A stretch of 64,000 nt of DNA from a virus, in IMG/VR virus record IMGVR_UViG_3300025018_002313. One strand, written 5' to 3'. The translations under genes and the position numbers were made by a program. Positions 33,348 through 35,626 of the stretch are shown one piece after another (the stretch's first letter is position 1; each line of letters starts with the position of its first letter). Below the pieces are notes generated by a model, which saw only the letters and a list, made by a program, of their open reading frames with translations, was not told the DNA's origin and searched no databases.

Positions 33348-33665
33348 ATGAAAGAATCGGAAAATACACAAATGCATGTTCCTCCGATGCCAGATACTCC
33401 GCTATCACATCCAACATCTTCTGATGAGGATCTTAAATCCAAAATACTGACAACTTATGAAAGTACTGCTGCACCTGATTGGCTTGTAATGCCAAAATAT
33501 ATTATCAATGCACAGAACGTTCTCTGGTTGCACAAAGATACAAACGAGAATATAGTGTATGTAAAATTTAAAGATGGATATGCATTACATATTCCAGTAT
33601 CTGATTTGGAAAATACATGGTCAACTTTACAACATGCGTTCGCAGATGGTATTAAAAAACGATGA
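33348..33665 (+). CDS. hypothetical protein
   Basis: 105-aa ORF. Confidence 0.4.
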   Translation: MKESENTQMHVPPMPDTPLSHPTSSDEDLKSKILTTYESTAAPDWLVMPKYIINAQNVLWLHKDTNENIVYVKFKDGYALHIPVSDLENTWSTLQHAFADGIKKR

Positions 33666-34234
33666 AAAAGTATTTCATTAAATACGGTAAAACTTATTTT
33701 GGAAAGGATTATAACTCTTTTACTAATGCTCAATACCGTGCATGTTCTTTCCCTGCTGATAAACCTATTGCATCCATAGAATATTTTCGATTTACTGCTC
33801 AACAAAAAATACTCGAATGTCGAGATGAAGCAGTAAAATCTATGAATAAGCATAAGCAAACAACACACAAAACCAAAAGCGAACTTCTCGACATTAAAAA
33901 AGAATGTTATCGGTTAAAGAAATTACATGATAAATTCTCAAAAACCAAAATCGTCCTTGAAGAAATAGAAATCGAATTTTTTAAAACTAATATTACACTA
34001 ACAGCAATTACATGGACAAAACCAACTTACTCCGGTAGTAAATGTGCATGTGCAATGTGTGGTGTATGGCTTGAAGATACCAAATATCTTAAAATAGTAC
34101 ATGCTCTATCAAGTGTTTATTTCTGTCCATTCTGTATTGAAATCTTAGGGGCACAGGCACCGCAAATTATTGAAGATATCAATGATGAAATTTGTGATTT
34201 ATACAAAACTAATAAGTTCGTAAAAGACTTATAA
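33662..34234 (+). CDS. Cys4 zinc-ribbon protein, paralog A
   Basis: KCACAMCGVWLEDTKYLKIV...CPFCIEILGAQAPQIIEDINDEI; paralogous to 35078..35626. Confidence 0.45.
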   Translation: MKKYFIKYGKTYFGKDYNSFTNAQYRACSFPADKPIASIEYFRFTAQQKILECRDEAVKSMNKHKQTTHKTKSELLDIKKECYRLKKLHDKFSKTKIVLEEIEIEFFKTNITLTAITWTKPTYSGSKCACAMCGVWLEDTKYLKIVHALSSVYFCPFCIEILGAQAPQIIEDINDEICDLYKTNKFVKDL

Positions 34235-34239
34235 TTTAC

Positions 34240-34268
34240 TTGATATGATATTCATTATCATTTATTAT
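34240..34268 (+). promoter_or_regulatory. sigma70-like promoter TTGATA-N17-TATTAT
   Basis: ttgatatgatattcattatcatttattat upstream of small membrane ORF. Confidence 0.45.
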
Positions 34269-34301
34269 ATATGTATTGATTAAGAAAAAGAAAGGAATTA
34301 T

Positions 34302-34478
34302 ATGACCTCATGGATTATTGCTGGATTAGTAATTATTGCGTTTATTCTAGGTGTTGGGTTTCTTCTTGGCTTTGCGGTCGGTAAAATCTCTGGTCGTGAA
34401 GAAGGAATTAAAGAAAAGTCTGATCGATGGAAGGCGCAAGGACAGTGGATTGTGACAAAAGGCGAGCGTCACGAGTAG
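34302..34478 (+). CDS. small membrane protein (58 aa)
   Basis: MTSWIIAGLVIIAFILGVGFLLGFAVG single TM; below ORF-track length cutoff; RBS aaaggaa. Confidence 0.35.
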   Translation: MTSWIIAGLVIIAFILGVGFLLGFAVGKISGREEGIKEKSDRWKAQGQWIVTKGERHE

Positions 34479-34604
34479 AAGAAATCTCATAACAAGTAAC
34501 AAAACAAAAGCAGATGGTGGACAGATGGAAAGAATGTTAAAGCAGAAATAATTAAGATTCGTAAAGCCACTGAGAAGAGTTAATAACTTCACATCTATAT
34601 TAAT

Positions 34605-35096
34605 ATGACAACTAAAATTACTTTTGATACCTTTGAAACATTTCACGAAGATACGGATGAACCAATTACATCTTTTGCTGGTAAATGGGAGTTCCTATCT
34701 AATTTTTCACAAGCAAAAGTGAAACTGGACGGTGCAGATTATTCAACTGTTGAAGCTGCATACCAAGCTGCAAAGACAGTAAATAAGAAAGAACGCACAC
34801 CAATCAGAAATGCAGACACTCCTGCAAAAGCAAAACAGCTAGGTAAACTAGTTACTATACGACCTGATTGGAAAGATATTAAGTTGTCAGTTATGGAAGA
34901 GTTGTTAAGACAGAAATTTGCACCATTTAAAGATGATTATTTCAAACTACTCCAGACTCATGATAGAGAATTAATTGAAGGTAATACTTGGCATGATACC
35001 TTCTGGGGTGTGTGTAATGGTAAAGGTAATAATCATTTAGGATTACTTCTAATGAGAATTAGAAATGAATATTTCCATTGGAGCTGTCTAAAATGA
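34605..35096 (+). CDS. NADAR-domain protein (YbiA-like N-glycosidase / ADP-ribosyl hydrolase family)
   Basis: FLSNF...VEAAYQAAK...WHDTFWGVCNGKGNNHLGLLLMRIR matches NADAR/DUF1768 signature. Confidence 0.7.
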   Translation: MTTKITFDTFETFHEDTDEPITSFAGKWEFLSNFSQAKVKLDGADYSTVEAAYQAAKTVNKKERTPIRNADTPAKAKQLGKLVTIRPDWKDIKLSVMEELLRQKFAPFKDDYFKLLQTHDRELIEGNTWHDTFWGVCNGKGNNHLGLLLMRIRNEYFHWSCLK

Positions 35097-35626
35097 GTGT
35101 TGTATTACAATGTAACGGACTGTTTATCGGAAAAATATTTCCAACTGTAAAACTTGTAAATTGCCGCGAAGATATAGATATTAATTGTATCTTTAGCGGC
35201 AATGACCAAGCAGATGGAGTTATTAGAGTTCTTCGAAGTAAGGAAGAATATGCCCGAGAAGTTTTATTAAAAATTGATTATGATAGTATCCCGTCAAAAT
35301 ATCAAAATATTATAACACATGCCTATAAAGAATTATGTAGAATTAAAGTTTTACAGGATTCAACTAAACCATTAAGATGTGGTTGTTGTTCAGTAACTAT
35401 CCCTGTTGCAAAATATATATTTATTGAGACGTATTCAGGTACACTGCATGTTAGTATTTGCCCGTTTTGTGCAGCAAAACTAGGTGAAATAGGTAATGAG
35501 GCAATTAAAGACATACCTGAAAGTATTCAGAACGAATATTATACGCACTTAGTTGAGCGAGGTCTTGCATGGTTATCTGAACCTGCAAATAATAATAGCA
35601 AGGATCTATCAGATCTACCGTTCTAG
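35078..35626 (+). CDS. Cys4 zinc-ribbon protein, paralog B
   Basis: RCGCCSVTIPVAKYIFIE...CPFCAAKLGEIGNEAIKDIPESI; overlaps NADAR stop. Confidence 0.45.
   Translation: MELSKMSVVLQCNGLFIGKIFPTVKLVNCREDIDINCIFSGNDQADGVIRVLRSKEEYAREVLLKIDYDSIPSKYQNIITHAYKELCRIKVLQDSTKPLRCGCCSVTIPVAKYIFIETYSGTLHVSICPFCAAKLGEIGNEAIKDIPESIQNEYYTHLVERGLAWLSEPANNNSKDLSDLPF

Follow-up and report, generated by a model that had tools for sequence, protein, structure and literature searches.

A YbiA-like NADAR gene and its zinc-ribbon partner in the accessory block of an uncultured huge phage

We analysed a 64,000-nucleotide stretch of viral DNA (IMG/VR record IMGVR_UViG_3300025018_002313; "the window" below means this whole stretch), in which a gene for a NADAR-domain protein lies within a short plus-strand run of accessory genes (Table 1). 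The run begins with a gene we call p105, continues with ZnR1, the small gene TM58 and a non-annotated stretch, and ends with NADAR and ZnR2; ZnR1 and ZnR2 belong to one family of small zinc-finger proteins. The stop codon of p105 overlaps the start of ZnR1 and that of NADAR overlaps the start of ZnR2, and TM58 together with an orphan coding segment separates the two gene pairs so formed. An earlier, sequence-only reading had started ZnR2 at a TTG (35078). The true start is most likely the ATG at 35093 instead, because a GGAG lies 10 nt upstream of it, it shares an ATGA with the NADAR stop, and it is where the database protein and the orthologs begin. With this corrected start, the overlap of the second zinc-ribbon gene with the NADAR stop that had been noticed in that reading holds.

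Table 1. Features of the NADAR locus and of the genes on either side of it (positions in the window).
Feature	Position	Strand	Length	Remarks
Vault-like gene	30791-33283	+	830 aa	Major-vault-protein-like
Hairpin	33294-33324	+		Intrinsic-terminator-like; 12 bp stem, 9 GC pairs, T-run
p105	33348-33665	+	105 aa	No Pfam or PHROGs family match; stop overlaps ZnR1 start (ATGA)
ZnR1	33662-34234	+	190 aa	Zinc-finger family member
TM58	34302-34478	+	58 aa	Hydrophobic N-terminal segment, predicted transmembrane
Non-annotated stretch	34479-34604	+	126 nt	Holds the orphan coding segment
Orphan coding segment	34512-34583	+	23 codons	RWWTDGKNVKAEIIKIRKATEKS followed by a stop; conserved with L017; no in-frame start codon
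NADAR	34605-35096	+	163 aa	PF08719; YbiA-like, Glu-type
ZnR2	35093-35626	+	177 aa	ZnR1 paralog; start overlaps NADAR stop (ATGA)
Minus-strand block	35721-40253	-		Converges on the plus-strand block
Metallophosphoesterase	36359-37006	-	215 aa	In the minus-strand block
QueE	37363-38157	-		Within 5 kb of NADAR, opposite strand
PTPS/QueD	39681-40253	-		Within 5 kb of NADAR, opposite strand

Identity and predicted role of the NADAR protein

The NADAR signature recognised in the sequence-only reading is borne out by profile comparison, and the catalytic residues are intact. The protein matches PF08719 at E=6.9e-24 (85.4 bits against a cutoff of 35.1), with its residues 13-155 aligned to profile positions 2-161 of 163, and phrog_1017 at E=3e-41. 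It also scores just above the cutoff of TIGR02464, the model for N-glycosidases of riboflavin biosynthesis intermediates (76.9 bits against 73.7). Among structures in the PDB, the best match is YbiA (2b3w, E=1.5e-17), and a Phytophthora NADAR is matched at E=7e-6.

To assign residues, we read the alignments against those defined by Schuller et al. (PMC11543638). E50 and K57, an E-x6-K pair within STVEAAYQAAK, align with the catalytic residues of 8bau and 2b3w and correspond to E43 of PnNADAR and to E88/K95 of the E. coli C7 NADAR, and E125, D131 and W134 align with E125, D130 and W133 of PnNADAR, which contact ADP-ribose (ADPr). NADARs fall into types by a third residue, at the position of PnNADAR E125: Glu is YbiA-like, Asp is the BC4488 type and His is found in T4-type phage NADARs (PMC11543638). 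Because the window protein has Glu at residue 125 (in ELIEGNT), we place it in the YbiA-like subfamily; its match to PF08010 (Phage_30_3) lies far below threshold (13.3 bits against 36). Judged by these alignments, it is predicted to be a catalytically competent, stand-alone N-glycohydrolase of the YbiA-like (Glu) type.

Homologs of the window NADAR occur in 439 phage records. The protein bas33_0070 of phage HildyBeyeler (MZ501074), which we identified as the Bas32/33 NADAR, is 45% identical to it over 139 aa (E=5e-36, 109 bits). Pfam and PADLOC scans of the neighbouring genes gave no match to DarT or to any other ADP-ribosyltransferase, and since no such gene is adjacent, the window NADAR is an orphan antitoxin-like gene, as described for phages.

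NADAR domains are found in >48% of medium and jumbo phages (PMC9503650). The orphan NADARs of T4 (AdfN, gp30.3), Bas32/33 and Bas60 strip guanine-linked ADPr from DNA and restore phage growth; those of Bas60 and Bas32/33 are unrelated to T4 AdfN, and those of Bas32 and Bas33 are identical to each other, neutralise DarT1 and restore growth on DarTG1 hosts (PMC11257639). An anti-DarT1-type role is the best supported for the window protein because the Bas32/33 enzyme, at 45% identity, has that activity experimentally. We therefore favour, with a rough probability of 0.55, a reading in which the NADAR works as an orphan, antitoxin-like glycohydrolase of ADP-ribosylated guanine in DNA and would protect replicating phage DNA from DarT1-type modification. 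The enzyme would cleave the N-glycosidic bond that joins ADP-ribose to N2 of guanine on phage DNA; this cleavage would undo ADP-ribosylation of the DarT1 type (or of a ScARP/YarT-like type), and phage replication could proceed once the modification was removed. Both the substrate and the targeted defence system are ones that we infer. The sequence-only reading had proposed counter-defence of this kind, and through the identity to Bas32/33 it stands as the best-supported role. The idea is not a new one: counter-defence of phage orphan NADARs against DarTG1 is already published, and the window gene adds a member to a known class.

Several points weigh against a role of this kind. A YbiA-type N-glycosidase is the closest solved structure, and the YbiA-type model is the sole NCBIfam model above its cutoff. 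In vitro, guanosine-ADPr was hydrolysed by 4/4 NADAR subtypes tested, YbiA included (Cihlova et al., PMC11125620), yet only some of these subtypes gave protection in vivo; E. coli YbiA and T4 gp30.3 were both active in vitro and neither rescued cells from DarT1 (PMC11125620), so the in vitro chemistry is no guarantee of an in vivo role. Finally, soluble ADPr signals have also been proposed as targets of phage NADARs (PMC9503650).

This last proposal amounts to an alternative in which the main substrates of the NADAR are low-molecular-weight ADP-ribose derivatives (immune signals or by-products of RNA repair) and not ADP-ribosylated DNA. It was put forward for most phage NADARs in a contextual survey of viral NAD+/ADPr systems, and the window gene is stand-alone, as that survey describes (PMC9503650). 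However, all phage NADARs tested, namely T4 AdfN, Bas32/33 and Bas60, are guanine-specific DNA ADP-ribosylglycohydrolases that counter DarTG1, and it is one of these DNA-acting enzymes that the window protein resembles at 45% identity. SLOG, Macro, Nudix and NAD-salvage genes were not seen in the surrounding open reading frames (ORFs) scanned. We regard action on soluble ADPr as unlikely.

A second alternative is metabolite damage control of the YbiA type, in which the enzyme would clear GTP-derived ribosylaminopyrimidines, possibly in the service of the adjacent nucleotide and 7-deazaguanine genes. The TIGR02464 score, the best structural match to E. coli YbiA and the YbiA-defining E125 all fit such a role, as does the presence of QueE, QueD/PTPS and a flavin-reductase-like gene less than 5 kb away on the opposite strand. 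However, no riboflavin-biosynthesis gene (GTP cyclohydrolase II, RibD) was found in the 20 neighbouring ORFs scanned, and the Que genes belong to a separate block on the convergent strand. The window protein is also nearer to the Bas32/33 NADAR (109 bits) than to YbiA (67 bits), and YbiA itself hydrolyses guanine-linked ADPr (PMC11125620). Taken together, these observations make damage control quite improbable, and protection of phage DNA from guanine ADP-ribosylation remains the role we favour.

Two gene pairs and the ZnR family

The ORFs on either side of NADAR, described as paralogous zinc ribbons in the sequence-only reading, are true paralogs. Their C-terminal domains are 32% identical over 74 aa (BLASTP, E=1e-5) and share the motif CxxC(G)...KY[LI]xI...CPFC..LG...I.DI with four invariant Cys (C130/C133/C155/C158 in ZnR1, C96/C99/C123/C126 in ZnR2). 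That reading had gone on to propose a three-gene unit with NADAR, and here the comparison with related phages points elsewhere.

In a close relative (L001-L004), the vault-like protein is 97% identical, and p105 (79%), ZnR1 (60%) and TM58 (91%, over its first 46 aa) follow in the same order. A more distant relative (L021) has an overlapping p105-like gene (63% over 73 aa) and a ZnR1 ortholog (39%). The 4-nt overlap of p105 and ZnR1 is present in L001-L004 and in L021, and ZnR1 orthologs always pair with p105 in the relatives. It is only ZnR2 that is coupled to NADAR: in L017 a NADAR (56%) is followed, again with a 4-nt overlap, by a ZnR2 ortholog (34%). In L019 the order is an SPFH gene, a 214-aa lipoprotein-like gene, NADAR (57%) and two ZnR genes (151 and 173 aa), all abutting; the tandem ZnR copies (24-30% identity) both lie downstream of NADAR and none lies upstream. 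After them comes the same convergent block of flavin-reductase, phosphoesterase, QueE, PTPS and reductase genes as in the window.

From sequence and gene order, the locus is best described as two independent pairs, p105-ZnR1 and NADAR-ZnR2, each translationally coupled through overlapping start and stop codons. The bracketing of NADAR by ZnR genes is specific to the window genome and depends on the intervening genes. An SPFH/Band_7-like membrane protein of 434-438 aa lies between TM58 and NADAR in the relatives (L001 9368-10672; L019 80-1396), and the window has neither this gene nor the 214-aa gene between 34478 and 34605. DNA homology to L001 ends at about window position 34544, 18 nt into the SPFH gene of L001. 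L001 itself ends just after its SPFH gene, whereas in L019 that gene is upstream of NADAR; because L001 ends before the expected NADAR position, absence of NADAR-ZnR2 from it cannot be claimed.

Could ZnR1, NADAR and ZnR2 nevertheless act as one functional unit? The only two ZnR genes in the 64 kb do flank NADAR within 1.4 kb and on the same strand. Against this stand the conserved coupling of p105 and ZnR1, the presence between ZnR1 and NADAR of TM58, the orphan segment and, in relatives, the SPFH and 214-aa genes, and the arrangement in L019 with both ZnR copies downstream of NADAR. We consider a three-gene unit very unlikely.

The coupling of NADAR with ZnR2 is itself genuine, but three observations limit the weight it can bear. 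NADAR and ZnR genes are adjacent in one syntenic phage lineage only (the window, L017 and L019), so the adjacency cannot be separated from inherited gene order. ZnR genes occur in four short contigs (L018, L022, L026, L027) with no NADAR nearby, and the NADARs of L013-L016, L023 and L024 have no ZnR nearby; NADAR homologs in IMG/VR contigs (39-53% identity) and in T5-like phages lack a ZnR neighbour.

As a family, the ZnR proteins can be recognised by their shared domain. A profile of that domain, run against 1.84 billion representative proteins, returned 41 proteins at E<=1e-3, all of them metagenomic. Most members are 150-300 aa long and carry the domain at the extreme C-terminus; they usually start M-x-K-Y-[YF]-I-K and finish F-[LIV]-x-x-L. 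All 36 sequences of an alignment have the four Cys, and nearly all have a Tyr in the last helix. A hidden Markov model (HMM) of 29 family members that leaves out both window orthogroups was run on all 613 six-frame ORFs in the window and picked out ZnR1 and ZnR2 alone (E=8e-26 and 6e-15), a test that is partly circular in that the 29 members were originally found with a profile seeded on ZnR1 and ZnR2. The members show no consistent match to Pfam or PHROGs and no match to PADLOC or NCBIfam. With ~40 clusters, ZnR forms a family of small zinc-finger proteins of phages that had not been described before. Other searches added little to it: word-indexed searches returned near-identical proteins or one 60% ortholog only, scanning IMG/VR with ZnR2 or with a ZnR subfamily yielded no match, and a metagenome scan gave one 1.9-kb contig. 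A match in Chitinophaga from a genome scan was spurious, consisting of a 16-aa knuckle only.

AlphaFold2 models of the two window proteins are confident. The ZnR2 model (predicted local distance difference test, pLDDT, 88.8) starts with a beta-beta-beta-alpha-beta domain at the N-terminus, which a linker joins to a zinc ribbon; two helices and a tail of lower confidence follow. The ZnR1 model (pLDDT 94.6; predicted template-modelling score, pTM, 0.77) has the same elements, that is, an N-terminal beta-sheet, a Cys4 ribbon and two C-terminal helices, plus a helical hairpin at residues 36-93. This hairpin region varies in length across the family and is absent from ZnR2. No enzymatic fold appears in the models, and fold searches gave nothing significant, with no match in BFVD at E<=0.001 and only generic helical hairpins for ZnR1. 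Three independent comparisons give the zinc domain a weak, sub-threshold resemblance to that of ClpX (PF06689). However, the ClpX domain is N-terminal, whereas in ZnR proteins the zinc domain is C-terminal, has two additional helices and finishes with a conserved F-x-x-x-L; the N-terminal domain before it is unrelated, and there is no AAA+ module. We infer that ZnR proteins are non-enzymatic binding or adaptor proteins.

We also considered a relationship to DksA/TraR (PF01258) and rejected it. None of the 36 ZnR members matches PF01258, and a single weak match to phrog_54 was seen (E=0.0089). The hairpin is absent from ZnR2, and in ZnR1 its tip (HKQTTHKTKS) is basic, not acidic. As a separate observation, a second family of about 103 aa adjoins ZnR genes in two unrelated contigs (L026 1037-1348 and L027 743-1057; 32% identity, E=6e-17); it precedes ZnR in one contig, follows it in the other and matches nothing in Pfam.

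ZnR2 differs from ZnR1 at its C-terminus. Its residues 162-177 (35576-35623) form a tail, NNNSKDLSDLPF, that ends in SKDLSDLPF and is modelled with low confidence. Within the family, only the ZnR2 orthogroup has such an extension, with an acidic stretch and a hydrophobic tip, whereas ZnR1-type members are without it; the orthologous tails end in DEDEDDF (P0040) and NGVPL (P0039). The C-terminal tip of bacterial single-stranded DNA-binding protein (SSB) is DDDIPF, and we take the ZnR2 tail to resemble it. Co-translated with NADAR, ZnR2 might help the enzyme to reach its substrate, or it might be a separate host-takeover or anti-defence factor that occupies a shared expression slot; we place the independent factor slightly above the accessory or targeting subunit. 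It is tempting to speculate that ZnR2 is a dedicated NADAR accessory subunit whose tail mimics the SSB tip and docks on the replication/repair machinery or on single-stranded DNA, delivering the glycohydrolase to ADP-ribosylated guanines at the fork, and that ZnR proteins are modular escorts co-translated with an upstream effector (p105 with ZnR1, NADAR with ZnR2). We consider this picture unlikely. That NADAR and ZnR2 instead form a phage-borne toxin-antitoxin-like or defence pair for superinfection exclusion, with NADAR as antitoxin and ZnR2 as effector, is highly improbable: in DarT1-NADAR and YarT-YbiA pairs it is the NADAR that acts as antitoxin, the NCBIfam model "NADAR family anti-phage protein" is matched sub-threshold (53.5 bits against 240), the PADLOC model PDC-M42C is matched at E=1e-7 and the two genes are tightly coupled, but ZnR2 has no ADP-ribosyltransferase, nuclease or other enzymatic fold and no PADLOC match, and ZnR paralogs occur without NADAR.

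The ZnR genes also stand out in their rate of change. Compared with L001, the ratio of nonsynonymous to synonymous substitution rates (dN/dS) is about 0.22 for ZnR1 and 0.04-0.10 for an exonuclease, the vault-like gene, p105 and TM58 (0.04 for TM58), values that are rough in that dS is near saturation. Similarly, ZnR orthologs have diverged to 24-34% identity where NADAR retains 56-57%. The genes of the block are real, under selection and fast-evolving, as accessory and host-interaction genes often are.

Neighbouring genes and the source phage

The window encodes a tail sheath, a large terminase and a baseplate hub, together with a class II-like ribonucleotide reductase and an HNH endonuclease, and it comes from a large tailed phage. 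Upstream of the locus, the vault-like protein matches the shoulder (E=9e-26) and the repeat domains (E=1e-10) of major vault protein. Its only relatives in the phage collection are in LR756500, LR756501 and LR756503 (44-46% identity), which are records of uncultured huge phages of 462-735 kb. The locus recurs unchanged on metagenomic contigs as long as 236 kb, and a megablast search with it against 50,697 phage records returned no near-identical DNA. The source is an uncultured, huge tailed phage of the jumbo class.

The terminator-like hairpin, a strong one, closes the vault-like gene, and from there the plus-strand accessory block begins. At its other end this block converges on the minus-strand block, which holds the flavin-reductase-like gene, a metallophosphoesterase, a 106-aa ORF, QueE, thymidine kinase, PTPS/QueD and the ribonucleotide reductase. 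QueE and PTPS/QueD make up a partial 7-deazaguanine pathway, which suggests modified guanines in the phage DNA; DpdA, QueC and FolE were not seen among the ORFs scanned, a scan that was not exhaustive. The pathway may matter here because the target of DarT1 is guanine. The metallophosphoesterase matches the PADLOC candidate-defence model PDC-S10 nearly end to end (E=1.3e-54); here a phage encodes a type of protein that is listed among putative anti-phage defence genes. Elsewhere in the window, positions 46000-54000 have a G+C content of 0.44-0.475, against 0.34-0.41 in the remainder, and hold many short ORFs on both strands.

Just upstream of NADAR, the reading frame of TM58 resumes after two stop codons as the orphan coding segment, and the same peptide is found in the same place in L017 (~118-192). 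Between the two, 13 codons differ synonymously and 5 are non-identical (4 replacements and the position of the stop), and identity by codon position is 18/24, 22/24 and 9/24. This synonymous-biased pattern points to selection on the coding frame, and neither the window nor L017 has an in-frame ATG, GTG or TTG for the segment. Recoding, a displaced gene end or a recombination scar are possible causes. In L001 (8771-9268), and also in L002 and L004, about 497 bp with a 90-aa ORF split the TM58 gene after RWKA. The interruption maps to about window position 34436, and the last 15 codons (QGQWIVTKGERHE and a stop) follow it, 100% conserved as protein. L003 carries different small ORFs at this point, which looks like an insertion hot spot. 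A group I intron was considered for the interrupted TM58 gene and the orphan segment and rejected, as Rfam shows no intron or other RNA family there.

Comparison with known NADAR systems

With the window gene, the class of phage orphan NADARs now takes in an uncultured huge-phage lineage and the YbiA-like (Glu-type) branch. The novelty is modest and lies in an undescribed, structurally confident ZnR family and in a coupling to NADAR that is kept despite divergence to 24-34% identity. If ZnR2 does modulate or target NADAR, this could help explain how the same in vitro chemistry goes with sharply different protection in vivo; otherwise the locus is just an ordinary block of accessory genes.

DarG1, the antitoxin linked to DarT1, belongs to the same fold family as the window NADAR, and guanine-ADPr hydrolysis is the chemistry that the two would have in common. 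In DarT1-linked NADARs the third catalytic residue is Asp (D171 of E. coli C7), and the window gene has no DarT1 beside it. E. coli YbiA shares the subfamily-defining Glu. However, it is encoded on the chromosome in a LexA-controlled operon, whereas the window gene sits in a phage accessory block, and YbiA does not protect against DarT1 in vivo (PMC11125620). AdfN (T4 gp30.3) is of the same superfamily, has the catalytic Glu and Lys (E36/K43) and has the same proposed orphan antitoxin-like role, but it represents a different NADAR subfamily, with His at the position of PnNADAR E125 where the window protein has Glu.

A further comparison is that with the Bas32/33 NADAR (Markadamsvirinae). Relative to Bas33, the window protein has a 20-aa N-terminal extension and comes from an uncultured huge phage, and its activity is predicted. 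Unlike in the window, no zinc-finger gene lies downstream of the Bas33 gene (L024) or of that of a related Epseptimavirus (L023). In other respects the two are much alike: both are stand-alone proteins of about 150-163 aa with no adjacent toxin, and both have the same E-x6-K pair and the same active-site stretch, LIEGNTW.DT.WGV.

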